NCBI GenBank assembly: GCA_964424775.1
Contig: CAYRJZ010000006.1
Coordinates: 1-57,757, forward strand
Direction of reading: 5' to 3'
DNA length: 57,757 nt
Origin: an uncultured Gammaproteobacteria bacterium
GTDB lineage: Bacteria; Patescibacteriota; Microgenomatia; Levybacterales; UBA12049
The notes under the pieces were generated by a model. That model saw nothing but the letters and a program-made list of their open reading frames with translations, ran no database searches and had not been told where the DNA came from. Both the position numbers and the translations under genes were made by a program. Of the stretch, positions 26,137-41,770 are shown piece after piece. Position 1 is the first letter of the stretch. Each line of letters begins with the position of its first letter.

Positions 26137-26165
26137 TTGACTCCCGAGTGATATTTCATTAATAT
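26137..26165 (+). promoter_or_regulatory. Sigma70 promoter TTGACT-17-TAATAT
   Basis: Near-consensus hexamers with 17-bp spacer, about 300 nt upstream of ATG 26468. Confidence 0.75.
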
Positions 26166-26184: not shown

Positions 26185-26205
26185 AGCCGACCGTCAGCGG
26201 AGGCA
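26185..26205 (+). promoter_or_regulatory. Leader motif copy 1 (AGCCGACCGTCAGCGGAGGCA)
   Basis: 18/21 identical to the minus-strand copy at 35255-35275; contains a CCG-N4-CGG hairpin. Confidence 0.7.
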
Positions 26206-26334
26206 AGTAGTTCAGTTTTTCCTAAAACTAACTACATCAGGCAACATCCCGAGAAGTGCACTAACAGCTGAATATATATTTGTATGCTCATTACCTGCCC
26301 GGTATCATACTGTCATTTGGTTGAAAATAACACT

Positions 26335-26377
26335 AACCCCTTATATCCGGTGTTGGAGGGATATGAGGGGTTTTTTT
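26335..26377 (+). terminator. Intrinsic terminator inside the 5' leader (attenuator candidate)
   Basis: 12-bp stem CCCCTTATATCC/GGATATGAGGGG followed by T7, between promoter and first gene. Confidence 0.8.
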
Positions 26378-26467
26378 GTGCTCAGAACCCCTCTCTCATT
26401 ATGTCCCGAGTTGAAGAATAATAAGAGGGGGGAGAATTTATCCTACCTATGAAAGGAGGTGAAAATA

Positions 26468-28108
26468 ATGAAATATACAAAACAATTTTTAGGAAGTTTT
26501 ATAGCAACAATTGCACTTTTTGCAGTAGTTCTCAGTCCAGTTACAGCTGACACACATACTGTAAGTTTTGAAAACCCTCCATATAATCCAGGGAATATTA
26601 ATGGTCAAGATAGTTGGACCAAAACTGGAACATATGATTCAGAAGTTGAAACAAATACGTATGGCTTTGCTTCATTCGGATCACAAACACTGCGTATCTC
26701 GAATGCAGTAACATCTGGAGCATTTGGGGATCAAACTTTTGCAAAACCTCTTTCTAATGGAGTTGGAGAAACAATCGCAACAAGCGGTTCATTTCTACCA
26801 GGAACCCGCCAAACAAAATTTGAGATGGAGTTTGATATTGCTTCTGCAATACCTACTGCTCAACAACCCGGCTTATTTCTCTCAATTTCTCCAGATAGGG
26901 GGGATGGATCTCGAATGAGTTACCTTGGCTTTGAAGATGTTTCTGGTGGTATTAAAGTGATATTTTATGATGTTCAAGGTACCTCTAATCCAGCAAATTT
27001 TGTTTTAACAGACTTAGGGACATACTCGAGAACTGAGACTCATAACATAAAGCTATCTTTAGACGCAGTTGAAGGCCCATCAAATGATGTAGTTAAAGTA
27101 TGGATTGACGATGTTCTTAAACATACAGGAACTAGCTGGGAAAACTATTATAGATATGATGCAGAAGCAAATGCAGAACAAACACCTAGAATAATAAAGA
27201 CAGTCTTGTTCCGTTCAGGAGGTACAGCTGTACCTGCTAATTTTGGAAACGGTTTTCTATTTGATAATGTGACTCTCACATCTTCTACGCCAGTAACATC
27301 TGTTAGTGGTGAAATTACAAACCCAGCAACTGATGGAGCTACTGTTAGCGGGATTTACAACTTTACAGCTACTTATGACGATGGTGACGAAGTAGATGAC
27401 GACGCTGTTCAATGGGCGATTCGCCAAGGAGCATGTAACGCTACAACAGCAACCTTATTCGGAAATGTAGATGGTCACAGTGACACATTTACATGGGATG
27501 GAGACTCATTCAGTACAACTCAAGACACAACTGGACTAACACCAGGCCAATACTGTTTCGTTTTCAACCCAACTGATGATGCCGGACAAAATGATGTTCG
27601 TGAACTTCGAACATTTATCATTGAAGAACCAGCTAATCCTTATGCAGTTCCTCTTGCTTGTCAAGGGAACGACGTCACCTATGGAACACCAATTGTTGGA
27701 ACTGAAGGCTCAGATAAAATCAGTGGAACATCTGGAAACGACCTTATATTCGCTCTTGGCGGATCAGACAAGGTCGATGGAAAAGGTGGACATGATTGTA
27801 TCGTTGGAGGAGCCGGAAGCAACAAGATTGATGGAGGCTCTGGAAATGACGTCATACTCGGAGGAGATAATTCAGACTCAATCGATGGAGGAAGTCATAA
27901 CGATAAAGTCTATGGTATGGGTGATAGCGATAGCTTAAAAGGAGGCTCTGGAGTTGACGAACTTTGGGGAGGAGATGGTGGCGATTCACTAAGTGGTGAC
28001 GCTGGAAACGACATACTTCGAGGTGAAGACGGTATTGACTCAGCCAAAGGTGGATCAGGAAATTCTGATAACTGTATCGCAGAATCAGAAAAGACATGTG
28101 AAATCTAA
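26468..28108 (+). CDS. Secreted protein with C-terminal RTX/hemolysin-type Ca-binding nonapeptide repeats
   Basis: Sec signal (…SPVTA), SD AAAGGAGG, about 12 GGxGxD-like repeats from GTEGSD to GGSGNSD. Confidence 0.8.
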   Translation: MKYTKQFLGSFIATIALFAVVLSPVTADTHTVSFENPPYNPGNINGQDSWTKTGTYDSEVETNTYGFASFGSQTLRISNAVTSGAFGDQTFAKPLSNGVGETIATSGSFLPGTRQTKFEMEFDIASAIPTAQQPGLFLSISPDRGDGSRMSYLGFEDVSGGIKVIFYDVQGTSNPANFVLTDLGTYSRTETHNIKLSLDAVEGPSNDVVKVWIDDVLKHTGTSWENYYRYDAEANAEQTPRIIKTVLFRSGGTAVPANFGNGFLFDNVTLTSSTPVTSVSGEITNPATDGATVSGIYNFTATYDDGDEVDDDAVQWAIRQGACNATTATLFGNVDGHSDTFTWDGDSFSTTQDTTGLTPGQYCFVFNPTDDAGQNDVRELRTFIIEEPANPYAVPLACQGNDVTYGTPIVGTEGSDKISGTSGNDLIFALGGSDKVDGKGGHDCIVGGAGSNKIDGGSGNDVILGGDNSDSIDGGSHNDKVYGMGDSDSLKGGSGVDELWGGDGGDSLSGDAGNDILRGEDGIDSAKGGSGNSDNCIAESEKTCEI

Positions 28109-28802: not shown

Positions 28803-28841
28803 ACCCTGCCCGGCGTTGTCGACAAACGCAGCAGGGTTTTT
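28803..28841 (+). terminator. Intrinsic terminator with bulged long stem
   Basis: ACCCTGC...GCGTT/AACGC...GCAGGGT followed by T tract. Confidence 0.75.
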
Positions 28842-28924
28842 GTTTGAGAAAAGAAGACGTTATGGAGAATGACTGACTTTTCTTACTTTATTTTTATATT
28901 CAAAATCTATAGTATATATTTGCC

Positions 28925-30216: not shown

Positions 30217-30240
30217 AAAAAAAATCCCCCGAAGGGGATT
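30217..30240 (-). terminator. Intrinsic terminator after the LPATG protein
   Basis: AATCCCC-TTCG-GGGGATT followed by T tract on the minus strand. Confidence 0.85.
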
Positions 30241-30243
30241 TCA

Positions 30244-33614: not shown

Positions 33615-33645
33615 AATTTTTAAAATATTATTTATTTAATTTCTA

Positions 33646-33700
33646 TATAAGAGTGTGGGGTGCTAATGGAAGTGCTCATCGACACCCCACAGTTCTTATA
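33646..33700. other. Long intergenic stem-loop between first and second repeat-protein genes
   Basis: TATAAGA-TGTGGGGTG pairs with CACCCCACA-TCTTATA; no U tract. Confidence 0.7.
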
Positions 33701-33702
33701 TC

Positions 33703-34938
33703 TTAGTTGTTACTAGCCCACCAAGACATGAACATACTCCACATGTTTAAATTCATGTCGAAGTCAAAGTCAAAGTCTGGAAGGTCAGCTGAGCCGATAA
33801 CGTTTTGGTTGCCTGCGTTTTTAACAGTAACCTCAGCATCTGAGTCTCCAGTTTCGATAGATGGATCAGAGATCGCATCTACTTCTCCTGTGTTGTCATC
33901 TGCATCGTTATCGCCTGTATCTCCGTCAACGTCGAGATCATTGTCGAGATCTGAATAGTTATCTTGGAAAAGACTTGCAGTCTCATCAAAGTTACCATAG
34001 ATATCGTTGTCTGAATCTGAACCGTTTCCGTTGATCTTTGCGAGTACGTCAAAGACGCATCCGCATCCTGCATCTGCAGCGTTAAAGTTAACCATGTTGT
34101 CAACTGTAACATCAGCATCAGCATCACCTGTGTCGATCATTACATCGCCACCTGTGTTGTCGTCTGCAGAATTGTCGCCTGTATCAGCATCTACGTCAAC
34201 GTCGTTATCAACATCTGCATTGTTATCTTGTGTGAGAACGAGTGCATTGTCGAAGTTGAGGTCGATTTCGTTGTCTGAATCAGAGCCGTTTCCGAGGATG
34301 TATGCTGAAACGAGTCCAGCTTCATCATCACCACCACCTACAACTGCTGAATTTGCATTAGCAGCTGTCATGATTTTAACGGTTGTGTCAGCGTCACCAG
34401 TTTCGATTTCTACATCTCCACCAGTGTTGTCATCTGCATCGTTGTCCCCAGTTTCTGCGTCAACGTCAACGTCGTTGTCGACATCAGCGTTGTTGTATTG
34501 GAAGACATTAGTTGTTGAATTGTTAGAAAGGTCTACATCATTATCTGAATCAGAACCATTTCCTGAAATAACAACCTTTGTATCACCAGTACAATTACCG
34601 CATCCACTTACATCAGCAGCATTACTATTAAGCTGGTTTTTGACTGTAACATTTGTTGAAGCATCACCTGTGTTAACTTTTACATTACCACCTGTGTTAC
34701 CTGAAGCTGAGTTATCGCCAGTTGTAGCGTTAACAGTTACGTTATTACTAACGTTAGCTGTGTTGTTTTGAACAACGTTAAGTGAACTTGATTGTGAAAC
34801 ATTTGCAGTATTGTTAGATCCTGATCCGTTTCCAGAAAGAGTGATCTCAGTAGCTGCAAGTGTCATTGGAGCTAAAGCATGGAGTAAGACTGATCCGGTT
34901 GCGATAGCTGTTGCGATTCGTGTTTTGTAATTTGTCAT
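33703..34938 (-). CDS. Secreted Asp/Asn-rich repeat protein (4 repeats of about 89 aa), major-subunit candidate (start ATG 34938)
   Basis: SD AAAGGGGG; signal peptide similar to that of 28173; four GNGSxS...Q.N.A.V.N.V...TGDNxAxxNTGG...TGDA units. Confidence 0.85.
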   Translation of the reverse strand: MTNYKTRIATAIATGSVLLHALAPMTLAATEITLSGNGSGSNNTANVSQSSSLNVVQNNTANVSNNVTVNATTGDNSASGNTGGNVKVNTGDASTNVTVKNQLNSNAADVSGCGNCTGDTKVVISGNGSDSDNDVDLSNNSTTNVFQYNNADVDNDVDVDAETGDNDADDNTGGDVEIETGDADTTVKIMTAANANSAVVGGGDDEAGLVSAYILGNGSDSDNEIDLNFDNALVLTQDNNADVDNDVDVDADTGDNSADDNTGGDVMIDTGDADADVTVDNMVNFNAADAGCGCVFDVLAKINGNGSDSDNDIYGNFDETASLFQDNYSDLDNDLDVDGDTGDNDADDNTGEVDAISDPSIETGDSDAEVTVKNAGNQNVIGSADLPDFDFDFDMNLNMWSMFMSWWASNN

Positions 34939-35036
34939 TATATTTGTCACCCCCTTTCTTGACTATGATTCCGTTTCCACCAAATGGTGAATTGGGCACT
35001 TCATCCGCTTTCCTGTCTAAGGCCTGAGGCTTGGAC

Positions 35037-35092
35037 AAAAAAACGGAAACATATCCTTCTAAATTACTTAGGAAGATGTGCTTCCGCTTTTT
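35037..35092 (-). terminator. Second leader terminator (attenuator candidate)
   Basis: GCGGAAGCACATCTTCCTAA/TTAGAAGGATATGTTTCCGT imperfect stem followed by T7. Confidence 0.75.
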
Positions 35093-35215
35093 GAGTTCTT
35101 TTTTGTTGTAATAAATTACTTGTATTCATTTGAGTTATTAAGATAATCGATTTCTTTTTGTGTTCTCTGTAAGGTTTCTCACATCCTTACAATCTATTTA
35201 CAAAACATTGTCCAC

Positions 35216-35258
35216 AAAAAAAGGCACCGTCATTTCTAATCATTTAGAAATAGGTGCC
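35216..35258 (-). terminator. First leader terminator, overlapping the leader motif
   Basis: GGCACC-ATTTCTAA/TTAGAAAT-GGTGCC followed by T7; 5' arm begins inside the GGAGGCA of the motif. Confidence 0.8.
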
Positions 35259-35275
35259 TCCGTTTACGGTCAGCT
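35255..35275 (-). promoter_or_regulatory. Leader motif copy 2 (AGCTGACCGTAAACGGAGGCA)
   Basis: 18/21 identical to 26185-26205. Confidence 0.7.
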
Positions 35276-35318
35276 CTTTATTTAATTTAGAAATTAAATA
35301 AAACTACTTAATGAGCAA

Positions 35319-35347
35319 AATATAATTGAATAAAAAATGTATGTCAA
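35319..35347 (-). promoter_or_regulatory. Sigma70 promoter TTGACA-17-TATATT
   Basis: Near-consensus promoter immediately downstream of the YezD-like gene. Confidence 0.75.
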
Positions 35348-35356
35348 TACCCAAAA

Positions 35357-35554
35357 TTATATTTTTACAGTATGCCCATTAGGAATATGTGAATTTGTCT
35401 TTTTGATATTGCGCTCTGTAATTTGAACAACTTTATAGTCCTGTACGTAGATCTCGACGCTTCCCCAACCGCGGATATTATTTAATGCTTCAACAATTTC
35501 TGCAATAAGTTCAGGACTAATTTTATTCATTGTCTTAGTTGTCTTTGTATTCAT
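35357..35554 (-). CDS. YezD/DUF2292-like small protein (alternative start 35530)
   Basis: IVEALNNIRGWGSVEIYVQDYKVVQITERN matches the recalled DUF2292 pattern (I..I..GSVEI.VQDG.V.QI). Confidence 0.7.
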   Translation of the reverse strand: MNTKTTKTMNKISPELIAEIVEALNNIRGWGSVEIYVQDYKVVQITERNIKKTNSHIPNGHTVKI

Positions 35555-40541: not shown

Positions 40542-40634
40542 ACATAAAGAGTTCCACTACTTAGTGGACAGCAACCGGCATAACGCGGTGCTCTCGTCGG
40601 AAGGACGTATGTGACTGAAACAACAGTATATTAT
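40542..40634 (+). ncRNA. SAM-I/IV-type riboswitch aptamer
   Basis: P1 ACAUA/UAUGU, J1/2 AAGAG, P3 AGCAACC/GGUGCU, P5 ACUG/CAGU, possible PK2 AUAA/UUAU; directly upstream of metK. Confidence 0.75.
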
Positions 40635-40635
40635 C

Positions 40636-40660
40636 AACCTTCCATATGGAAGGTTTTTTT
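40636..40660 (+). terminator. Riboswitch expression-platform terminator
   Basis: AACCTTCC-ATAT-GGAAGGTT plus T tract ending immediately before ATG 40661. Confidence 0.8.
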
Positions 40661-41770
40661 ATGAAAAATAAAACAACATTTACGTCTGAATCTGTGTGTG
40701 CAGGACACCCAGATAAAATTTGTGATCAAATTAGTGATGCAATTGTTGATGCAGTTTTGGCACAAGATCCTTTTGGCCGAGTTGCTCTCGAAAGCCTTGC
40801 TGCTAATAATCATATTGTCTTAGCAGGTGAGGTAACTTCTACTGCACACATAAACTTTGAGGAAATTGCACGTTCGGAAATAAAAAGACTCGGATATGTC
40901 GATCCCGAGTCTGGATTTAGTTATAGATCGCCTCTAGAAAATTATGTTCATGAACAATCACCTGAAATTGCACGTGGAGTTAAGAAAAAAGGAGCGGGAG
41001 ATCAAGGTATGATGTTTGGTTTTGCATGCACAGAGACAAATTCACTGATGCCACTTCCCATAACTCTCGCACACGAACTTGCAAAAACAATAGACAAAGT
41101 AAGAGAAGACAAGACCCTTTCATATCTTCGACCTGATGGAAAAAGTCAGGTAACAGTTGCTTATGAGAATGGCAAACCAGTAGAAGTTACGAAAGTAGTT
41201 GTAGCCGTACCTCATAATGAAAGTATTTCTCTTGAGCGCGTAAAGAGGGATCTTTACAAGTATGTCATTACTCCTGTTCTCAAAGAAGAAGGCTTTCATA
41301 TAAGTGAAAACGACATTACAGTTAATGGAACAGGGGTCTGGCATAAGGGAGGTCCTGCTTCTGACTCAGGGCTCACAGGACGAAAAATTGTCGTAGATAC
41401 GTATGGAGGATATGCACGAGTGGGTGGGGGAGCGTTCAGCGGAAAAGATCCTACAAAAGTAGATCGCTCAGGTGCCTATGCAGCCCGCTTCCTGGCAAAA
41501 AATCTTGTAGCACATGGACTTTGTGAAAAAGCGGAAGTTCGTCTTGCATATGCAATTGGCATTCGCAAACCGTTAATGCAGGATATAGAGACATTTAACA
41601 CTGAAAAAGTAAGTAAAAAAGCACTCTTAGATTTTATGAAGAAACTGCTGGACACATCTGTTGAAGGGATAATTGATGGACTTGATTTGAGGCGTCCGCT
41701 CTATAAAAGTACCGCAGCCTATGGTCACTTCGGAAAAAAAGGCCTTCCTTGGGAAAAAATTGTAAAATAA
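40661..41770 (+). CDS. metK: S-adenosylmethionine synthetase
   Basis: FTSESV..GHPDK, GAGDQG, LRPDGKSQV and GGGAFSGKDPTKVDRS motifs. Confidence 0.97.
   Translation: MKNKTTFTSESVCAGHPDKICDQISDAIVDAVLAQDPFGRVALESLAANNHIVLAGEVTSTAHINFEEIARSEIKRLGYVDPESGFSYRSPLENYVHEQSPEIARGVKKKGAGDQGMMFGFACTETNSLMPLPITLAHELAKTIDKVREDKTLSYLRPDGKSQVTVAYENGKPVEVTKVVVAVPHNESISLERVKRDLYKYVITPVLKEEGFHISENDITVNGTGVWHKGGPASDSGLTGRKIVVDTYGGYARVGGGAFSGKDPTKVDRSGAYAARFLAKNLVAHGLCEKAEVRLAYAIGIRKPLMQDIETFNTEKVSKKALLDFMKKLLDTSVEGIIDGLDLRRPLYKSTAAYGHFGKKGLPWEKIVK

Follow-up and report, generated by a model that had tools for sequence, protein, structure and literature searches.

The stretch 35037–35347 of the analysed DNA is the untranslated leader of a minus-strand surface-protein operon, probably the main operon for Asn/Gly-rich surface-repeat proteins and a sortase in a Microgenomates (Patescibacteria) bacterium. 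This leader and a second one, in front of a convergent plus-strand operon, are very probably genuine conserved cis-regulatory RNAs, in which a sequence-specific 19-nt box and intrinsic terminators are physically coupled. That box and terminator overlap is no peculiarity of one genome: the overlap is a conserved leader core in 73 homologous loci. The favoured mechanism, with a probability of roughly 0.5, is a factor-dependent transcription attenuator, in which a factor would bring about antitermination by binding or stabilising hairpin A, an alternative fold of the box. The window is the whole stretch of DNA that was analysed, 57,757 nucleotides in length; handles such as L083 denote related loci.

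Leader of the minus-strand operon

The leader and its flanks are composed of the following features.

35357–35554, minus strand: 65-aa DUF2292/YezD-family gene (Pfam PF10055, E 4e-7; weak NCBIfam match to OscA)
35347–35342 and 35324–35319, minus strand: sigma-70-type promoter, TTGACA, 17-nt spacer, TATATT (11/12 match; hexamers identical in L083)
35279–35300, minus strand: perfect 22-nt AT-rich palindrome TATTTAATTTCTAAATTAAATA between the transcription start site (TSS) and the box (folds at only −4.4 kcal/mol; lost in L083)
35274–35256, minus strand: box core GCUGACCGUAAACGGAGGC (hairpin A region 35254–35276; two exact copies in the window; 143 instances in 162 related loci)
35258–35216, minus strand: terminator T1, GGCACC 35258–35253 / GGUGCC 35228–35223, T7 35222–35216 (−20.3 kcal/mol; covariance model R1, 39.3 bits)
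35093–35215, minus strand: unconserved T1–T2 spacer (88-nt indel relative to L083; ~30 to 200 nt long in the sub-clade)
35092–35037, minus strand: terminator T2, long and imperfect stem 35087–35044, T7 35043–35037 (−23.2 kcal/mol; model R1, 34.7 bits)
34978–35017, minus strand: post-terminator segment with GACAGGAAAGCGGA (35017–35004), GAAGUGC (35002–34996) and a small hairpin CACC/GGUG (34989–34978) (patterns across relatives)
34954–34947, minus strand: Shine–Dalgarno (SD) sequence GGGGGUGA ahead of the 411-aa repeat protein
34938–34936, minus strand: true start codon (ATG) of the 411-aa repeat protein (homolog alignments begin at MTNYK)

Transcription is predicted to start at about 35312, which gives a leader of ~374 nt. 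The exact box occurs only twice in the 57.8-kb window, once in each of the minus-strand and plus-strand leaders, versus 0.08 copies expected by chance. An earlier note, made from these letters alone, described two tandem hairpins with T7 tracts in the minus-strand leader and placed the beginning of the first 5′ arm, GGCACC, inside the box. Both descriptions hold: T1 and T2 are present, and the 5′ arm of T1 shares with the box the trinucleotide GGC, the last 3 nt of the latter. The 5′ arm of T2 is the half-box AAAAAGCGGAAGC, and T2 carries only this degenerate half-box (AAGCGGAAGC). The whole leader folds with a z-score of −5.1, and none of 100 shuffled sequences was as stable. The covariance model, built only from the leaders of other species, matches T1 with an E-value of 1e-6 and T2 with an E-value of 2e-5. 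A simple terminator scan missed T1, T2 and the plus-strand terminator, whose loops or mismatches lie outside the scan rules.

By the same note, its reading would be refuted if the main TSSs were located downstream of the terminators. At the level of sequence, the only good promoters, both in the window and in relatives, are upstream of them. The single promoter-like match 3′ of T2 (34965–34937) overlaps the start codon, and a sequence scan found no credible promoter between the last terminator and the gene in the window or in typical relatives. Judging by the folding energies, transcription would terminate at these sites in vivo and the operons would be off by default, as had been proposed.

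Several candidate elements of this leader were rejected. The AT-rich palindrome at 35300–35279 was ruled out as an operator, being not conserved in L083, where the protein is 82% identical; it is probably non-functional. A GTG at 34950 was discarded as the start of the 411-aa protein: it falls within the SD sequence, and homologs start at MTNYK. A leader peptide, with GGAGG in the box serving as its SD sequence, was also rejected, since relatives have no conserved start codon after the box.

The segment GACAGGAAAGCGGA (35017–35004) is able to pair with the U tract and CCG of T2 (35047–35034 with 35017–35004). In typical loci, likewise, the last CCG and the U tract of the terminator can pair with a downstream AAAACGG-like segment, and such a helix is possible solely in read-through transcripts. 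The motif AAACGG occurs thrice, in the box, the T2 arm and the post-terminator segment, each time complementary to CCGUUU.

Conservation of the box and the terminator in Microgenomates

An alignment of the 411-aa family was searched against one genome per GTDB species. The search yielded 80 loci, 79 of them with usable upstream sequence, from Levy-, Gottesman-, Woese-, Davies-, Ames- and Chisholmbacteria. Of the 79 loci, 73 have the box, 120–370 nt before the homologous gene, and most copies read (A)AGCUGACCGCAAACGGAGGC(UUYU). Constrained folds place box positions A6–C14 (AACGGAGGC) at the 5′ base of one long hairpin in ~65 loci; the 3′ arm, which reads ...GCCUCCGUUUUU, is followed by a U tract. 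Another 80 metagenome loci have the same pattern, and all loci together contain 143 box instances with 116 distinct sequences.

The terminator stem covaries. In a MAFFT alignment of 30 leaders, the stem is 95.9% paired, 11 pairs vary on both sides and no shuffle out of 500 does as well, a statistic that is inflated, like the other shuffle-based ones, by kinship among the sequences. When 68 leaders were aligned to the covariance model, the stem was 94.9% paired, with 14 of 21 pairs varying on both sides and 205 compensatory cells; again, 0 of 500 shuffles reached the observed value, and slid controls were 37–54% paired. Invariance is confined to the nine base pairs in which the box takes part, and what variation is found there is chiefly on the 3′ partner (G–C to G–U); the partner of G24, for example, is C, or U in 11 sequences. 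Because the variation at the stem base sits mostly on the 3′ partner, the box strand itself is under sequence selection.

A promoter of the form TTGACA-17/18-TATAnT precedes the box in most loci, with the end of the −10 element 15–92 nt before it. This variable distance to an upstream promoter indicates that the box is transcribed and serves as neither promoter nor operator. An operator in the DNA, bound by a transcription factor, or a non-template-strand signal of the ops type would suit the invariant sequence and the little covariation that the box displays within Microgenomates, but the promoter distance varies, the box is always on the transcribed sense strand and is fused to a covarying RNA stem, and its inner stem changes compensatorily between phyla. 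A role as a DNA site is therefore hardly credible.

A second conserved element is a box of the (A/G)AGUGC type with a hairpin before the SD sequence, found by pattern in 68 of the 80 loci (a few matches look spurious); GAAGUGC is its common form. It lies between the terminator and the SD sequence in the minus-strand leader of the window and before the terminator in the plus-strand leader. Five loci that lack the 19-nt box have a TAAGAT −10 element 7–9 nt upstream of GAAGUGC, a placement that makes GAAGUGC the mark of the 5′ end of a minimal mRNA. The element might serve in processing, stabilise the 5′ end or act as a second protein site.

These data also bear on the possibility that the leader elements are unregulated, i.e. 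that they are constitutive partial stops or structures for stability or processing which fix the level of expression, and that the product is a short leader RNA (TSS to T1, ~95 nt) without any sensing. Box-less lineages manage with a plain promoter just before GAAGUGC, and there is no known signal or ligand. From T2 to the ATG, the window and L083 have 98% identity, which exceeds the conservation of the coding sequence (82% amino-acid identity) and is what would be expected of stability or translation elements. However, an invariant 5′ strand of 19 nt would be superfluous in a plain terminator, the distal stem covaries freely here, and the box recurs both without a terminator and beside yezD in another phylum. 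Unregulated elements are accordingly considered quite improbable.

Alternative fold of the box and the proposed mechanism

The box can also fold on itself. Hairpin A has the general form GCU-GA-CCG-YAAA-CGG-A-GGC and an energy of −7 to −8 kcal/mol; in the minus-strand leader (−7.0 kcal/mol) it consists of an outer helix GCU/GGC, a GA/A internal loop, an inner stem CCG/CGG and a UAAA loop. It shares box positions 8–16 with the terminator, and the two structures are mutually exclusive. Hairpin A forms in ~85% of alignment cells. In a test of the flanks, the native sequences folded at −10.34 kcal/mol, as compared with −9.17 ± 0.15 for chimeric, −8.59 for reversed and −8.91 for shuffled flanks; the excess stability with native flanks has a z-score of −7.8 and a Wilcoxon p of 1.5e-10. 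The flanking pair (−5,15) is present in 96 of the 116 sequences versus 76 expected, pair (−6,16) is enriched too, and A–U, G–U, U–A and G–C are all seen. Isolated compensations occur in L045, where C-3 is changed to U together with G13 to A (the same change breaks a terminator pair), and in the minus-strand box of L076, where G-4 is changed to U together with C14 to A. With the altered inner stem of the Bacillus box (see below), the flank test and these compensations provide moderate support for hairpin A.

The leader thus has the organisation of an attenuator: conserved structures that exclude each other, with a promoter upstream of the terminator and none between the terminator and the gene. 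In the proposed mechanism, the leader transcript would start at a sigma-70-type promoter, and the 19-nt box would emerge 14–40 nt after the transcription start and fold into hairpin A (GCU/GGC, GA/A loop, CCG/CGG). The 3′ nucleotides of the box also form the base of the terminator stem, so that only one of the two structures could exist at a time. Without a factor, the more stable terminator (−20 vs −7 kcal/mol) would prevail and transcription would stop. A trans-acting factor, most likely the 55–90-aa DUF2292/YezD protein encoded immediately upstream, would hold the hairpin form or cover the box; with the terminator base removed in this way, RNA polymerase would read on.

The adjoining DUF2292/YezD gene

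The DUF2292 gene of the window ends 10 nt before the −35 hexamer. In 71 of the 73 loci that have the box, a homolog immediately precedes it, with the promoter on one side and a conserved gene for a 205-aa membrane protein on the other, and the homologs have a highly conserved core, YGSVEIYVQxxxVTQITVRNIKKT. Box and gene are thus both present in 71 loci and both missing in five; only one locus (L021) has the gene alone and two (L035, L039) have the box alone. In the AlphaFold2 (AF2) model, the protein comprises one helix and a β-hairpin, with a predicted local distance difference test (pLDDT) score of 81.6. A literature search found no paper describing the function of DUF2292. The family is the prime candidate for the trans-acting factor, although this assignment is tentative.

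The loci L022, L038, L046, L049 and L062 can be viewed as natural ‘deletion mutants’: DUF2292, the box and the terminator were lost together and a new promoter was gained. In L021 (6700–7000), DUF2292 is kept and the box and the terminator are cleanly lost (cf. L033).

The pattern of losses is relevant to the direction of regulation. Attenuation could be repressive, in the style of PyrR, TRAP or ribosomal protein L4, with hairpin A permitting passage and a factor on the 5′ half of the box freeing the terminator; this factor would possibly report a surplus of unsecreted subunit. The alternative structures would be identical to those of the antitermination model, and the gene is probably among the most highly expressed, which makes an on-by-default state with feedback biologically attractive. 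On the other hand, the terminator is ~13–30 kcal/mol more stable than hairpin A and can invade from its independent distal stem, so that the hairpin, unaided, would probably give way. The losses (neither component in five loci, the factor only in one, a terminator without an adjacent factor in two) also fit a factor that is needed for expression. Repressive attenuation is decidedly unlikely.

The same design beside yezD in Bacillaceae

DUF2292 proteins of Microgenomates and Bacillus were compared with PLSDB using tblastn, and YezD genes were found in eight records; the DUF2292 protein of the window itself found nothing among plasmids, and a more typical family member was used instead. In Bacillus mycoides p31, Bacillus sp. 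N5-665 and Cytobacillus spongiae, a box begins within ~6 nt after the yezD stop codon, with no promoter between them. It reads (GCG|AAG)CUGAC-UAG-A(A/C)AAA-CUA-GAGGCG, retaining the flanks and the GA/A loop of the Microgenomates box; the inner stem differs (CUAG/CUAG) and the loop is AAAAA or ACAAA. A terminator of at least 14 bp follows, its 5′ arm starting in GAGGCG, and then cysH; compensatory changes are found between species. The model built from Microgenomates only ranks these sites first in each locus, with 31.1 bits (E 2.6e-6), 24.8 bits and 11.7 bits. The link between yezD and the box is frequent in the sequences sampled and not universal, and the cross-phylum sample is three Bacillaceae loci.

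In the two Bacillus records, the unit sits downstream of an S-box riboswitch. In these cereus-group loci (L163, 2380–2800, and L164, 3790–4190), the S-box (S-adenosylmethionine, SAM) riboswitch, yezD, the box with its terminator and cysH–sat–cysC are arranged in series, an order that yields two successive attenuators on one transcript.

The element is also linked to YezD in its layout, the DUF2292 gene adjoining it and the 3′ flank of the box starting the terminator, which it does fully in typical relatives. In the window, T1 has this overlap through GGC only; the plus-strand box lacks it, with 130 nt between box and terminator.

Since the controlled genes in Bacillus are those of sulfate assimilation, a very small riboswitch might be considered, in which hairpin A with its GA/A loop would bind a metabolite directly. 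A riboswitch would fit the layout, in which the terminator and the aptamer stem have the 3′ strand of the latter in common. But the conserved part, ~19–25 nt, is below known aptamer sizes and has no Rfam match, and E-value scans of the leaders against Rfam 15 produced hairpin-level noise only (at most 24.7 bits vs gathering scores of 48–180). The controlled genes are unrelated between phyla (surface proteins vs cysH), and the close association with the gene of a small protein suggests that the ligand is a protein. We regard a riboswitch as very improbable.

As a tentative and broader proposal, DUF2292/YezD/OscA may be a cross-phylum family of very small RNA-binding antiterminators that read a CUGAC-hairpin-GAGGC box with a GA/A loop. 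Protein and box together would gate sulfate assimilation in Bacillota; in Microgenomates, they would have been co-opted to turn on a regulon of the major secreted Asn/Gly-repeat surface proteins.

Two-terminator leaders

Nine genomes share the two-terminator layout: the window, L004, L008, L012, L015, L027, L050, L051 and L053. In this sub-clade, the box is joined to a short new T1, which is followed by an unconserved spacer of 30–200 nt and by T2 with a half-box lacking GCUGACCG. Both stems covary: T1 has compensatory changes in the eight relatives, and T2 has a conserved base, ACGGAAR/YUUCCGU, with a covarying distal stem in the nine genomes. The closest relative, L083 (82% protein identity), keeps the promoter hexamers, the box and T1, the last with compensatory changes. 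An ancestral single module is proposed to have been split or duplicated in the lineage of the window, leaving T1 tied to the full box and T2 with a half-box.

Plus-strand leader

The plus-strand leader has the following organisation.

26137–26142 and 26160–26165, plus strand: promoter TTGACT, 17-nt spacer, TAATAT (9/12 match)
26186–26204, plus strand: second copy of the box, GCCGACCGUCAGCGGAGGC (hairpin −8.2 kcal/mol)
26207–26235, plus strand: hairpin H1 (−10 kcal/mol, no U tract), followed by AUCAGGCAACAUCCCGA and GAAGUGC (26253–26259)
26335–26372, plus strand: 14-bp terminator stem, with T7 at 26371–26377 (−23 kcal/mol; conserved in L082)
26388–26432, plus strand: hairpin H3 between the terminator and the SD sequence (−18.3 kcal/mol; conserved in L082)
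26455–26462 and 26468, plus strand: SD sequence and ATG of the RTX-repeat gene

The TSS is predicted at ~26172, which gives a leader of ~296 nt, and the leader folds with a z-score of −2.1. Both hairpins that the earlier note described here, at 26207–26235 and, with its T7 tract, at 26335–26377, are present. The stem of the second has 14 bp; the first is followed by AUCAGGC and, having no U tract, is not an intrinsic terminator. The terminator proper lies 130 nt past the box and does not overlap it.

The whole layout is kept in L082 (59% protein identity, same AcrB-side synteny). Its promoter, TTGACA-17-TAGTAT, is 20 nt before the box, the same spacing as in the window, and its box, GCUGACCGUCAACGGAAGC, is at the matching place. 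The hairpin in the position of H1 differs in sequence; the following AUCAGGCAAYAUCCCRAGAAGUGC is conserved, and so is a CCTGCYC box. The terminator has one compensatory pair (UAUAUCC/GGAUAUG to UACAUCC/GGAUGUG), and H3 has several (CCCCUCUC/GAGAGGGG to CCCCGCUC/GAGCGGGG). Another relative of the plus-strand gene, L081, has a plain promoter without a box. Boxes of convergent operons were found in six other loci. They overlap a terminator in two or three cases (L007, L011, L037); the terminator is further on in L076, and no obvious terminator is present in L018.

CTGCCC boxes recur between the promoter region and the 19-nt box in loci of Gottesman- and Woesebacteria (L002, L007, L009–L011, L014, L033, L052, L056, L069, L074 and L078), often as pairs 15–20 nt apart. 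In the window, CCTGCCCGG is found at 26294–26300 in the plus-strand leader and at 28805–28813 in the terminator stem after the 200-aa gene; the counterpart in the leader of L082 is CCTGCTC.

Terminators at a distance from the box would be explained by processive antitermination, in which the box, in the manner of lambda nut boxB, HK022 put or the hairpin of LoaP leaders, would load a factor that alters RNA polymerase and makes it run through T1, T2, the remote plus-strand terminator and whatever stops come later. This would account for the passage of T2 with its half-box, for that of the plus-strand terminator 130 nt downstream and for other terminators without overlap, such as that of the minus-strand leader of L076. 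The operons encode secreted surface structures, which are classic targets of the NusG paralogues RfaH and LoaP. Such a mechanism leaves unexplained, however, why the 3′ half of the box is the terminator base in ~65 of 73 loci. No NusG-like, N-like or other candidate gene is found in the window, and within the minus-strand operon there is just one hairpin, without a U tract. Processive antitermination is, on balance, unlikely.

Evidence against the attenuator model

A number of observations weigh against factor-dependent attenuation as described above. The earlier note suggested that binding at the box could directly block the first terminator. This is sensible for T1, where hairpin A excludes the terminator base; T2 and the plus-strand terminator are not explained. 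Because these two overlap no full box, direct blocking can account for T1 and for typical single-terminator leaders only, and the other two need leakage, binding at the half-box or a processive effect. In L020, the box of the convergent operon (minus strand) has an SD sequence directly after it and no terminator. Given the uncoupled T2 and plus-strand terminators and this terminator-less case, the box must act beyond the blocking of an overlapping terminator. T2, the plus-strand terminator and the terminator-less boxes keep alive the processive model, as well as a role of the box in translation or RNA stability.

Further points concern hairpin A and the candidate factor. The core of hairpin A is invariant within Microgenomates, and its pair counts are indistinguishable from those of shuffles and slid controls; recurrent GGAAGC variants leave C-3 unpaired opposite A13, uncompensated. 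The joint loss of DUF2292 and the box may be a single deletion, as gene and box adjoin, and synteny is only suggestive. The fold of DUF2292 resembles no known RNA-binding protein in comparisons by PDB sequence and Foldseek: the PDB has no sequence relative, and the Foldseek search with the AF2 model gave nothing below E = 2. Four other yezD loci (Niallia, Paenibacillus, Priestia and Novosphingobium) have no recognisable box. Four of six RNA runs were compared with the window, and no RNA runs were listed for a second locus, L053. These libraries cover the vicinity of the leader with only 3–4 metatranscriptome unitigs of 151 nt, including 34862–35010 and 34891–35041; they contain the 5′ untranslated region from the U tract of T2 onward and have no bearing on termination.

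Genomic setting

The window has a G+C content of 38% and contains scattered tRNA and housekeeping genes. The relatives of the window's proteins belong to Patescibacteria throughout, chiefly to Microgenomates. It also contains two convergent operons for secreted repeat proteins rich in Asn, Gly and Thr. The minus-strand operon comprises the genes of the 411-aa protein (ATG 34938), a 727-aa protein, a 371-aa LPATG protein and a sortase, with a terminator at ~30221–30242. The plus-strand operon comprises the genes of an RTX-repeat protein (ATG 26468) and a 200-aa repeat protein, with a terminator at ~28803–28843.

The N-terminal 400 residues of the RTX-repeat protein (26468–28108, plus strand) belong to a very large Patescibacteria family (1465 matches, Saccharimonadia included), which is combined with many differing C-terminal modules. 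The relative of the RTX-domain gene in L081 adjoins genes of a sortase and SpaA-type pilins. Between the first and second genes of the minus-strand operon, at 33645–33701 (minus strand), there is a hairpin of −28.8 kcal/mol (z = −6.4) without a U tract, which may be an mRNA-stabilising 3′ structure that boosts the yield of the major subunit. A separate note on the window proposes a SAM-I/IV-like riboswitch before metK at 40542–40663; a scan of the whole window at Rfam gathering scores gave tRNAs and no other family.

Significance and comparison with known systems

A literature search found no paper that combines Microgenomates with antitermination and none that describes the element. An attenuator shared at a sulfonate ABC operon was mentioned by Naville and Gautheret (2010), who gave no details. 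Mechanisms in which a trans-acting factor governs alternative hairpins are well known as a kind; the box, the protein that is likely to be its partner and the use for surface proteins in the candidate phyla radiation are not.

Gene regulation in bacteria of this radiation is almost unknown, and the organisms cannot be grown alone. Here, a compact control element, testable in a heterologous host, stands before the probable main surface protein and is conserved across the superphylum. If the proposal is true, the Microgenomates pair possibly links the production of envelope or fibres to a cellular signal sensed by DUF2292. A testable function is also offered for the widespread DUF2292/YezD/OscA family, which, if confirmed, would constitute a new class of RNA-binding antiterminators; this would account for the hairpin-terminator that lies, unannotated, between yezD and cysH in Bacillus and Cytobacillus, and perhaps for further leaders of sulfur genes in Bacillota.

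The element resembles the BglG/SacY/LicT systems. There, a small conserved hairpin of the leader and the 5′ arm of an intrinsic terminator have nucleotides in common; read-through occurs when a protein stabilises this hairpin, and the gene of the regulator adjoins the target. The ribonucleic antiterminator (RAT) consensus of those systems is a ~29-nt hairpin, unlike the 19-nt box with its GA/A loop. The targets here are genes of surface proteins and not of sugar utilisation, and the candidate partner is a ~60-aa protein with a helix and a β-hairpin; Pfam scans of 50 open reading frames of the window found no CAT-PRD protein.

LoaP, RfaH and other NusG paralogues act on long terminator-bearing leaders of operons for extracellular structures, through a small, early, conserved recruitment element. 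In those systems, however, this element is not the terminator base, and the window has no NusG paralogue, the Pfam scans of its open reading frames having found no NusG_N or KOW protein. Lambda N and nut boxB are similar in that a small protein, here a proposed one, reads a small 5′-proximal hairpin to overcome terminators. They differ in that no boxA-like element is present here and the hairpin and the terminator overlap; N is a disordered protein that has an arginine-rich motif, and DUF2292 has a predicted fold.

In the PyrR, TRAP and L4–S10 systems, a leader-bound protein likewise chooses between antiterminator and terminator, and L4 is a case of feedback by an abundant structural protein. 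The protein there promotes termination, and the binding sites (PyrR loop, GAG/UAG repeats) are unrelated to the box. The yezD–cysH leader of the Bacillus cereus group and Cytobacillus has the same CUGAC-hairpin-GAGGC box, the same GAGGC-started terminator and an adjoining YezD gene. Its inner stem is another one, it has no promoter between yezD and the box, and it is subject to S-box riboswitch control and serves sulfate-assimilation genes instead of those of surface proteins.

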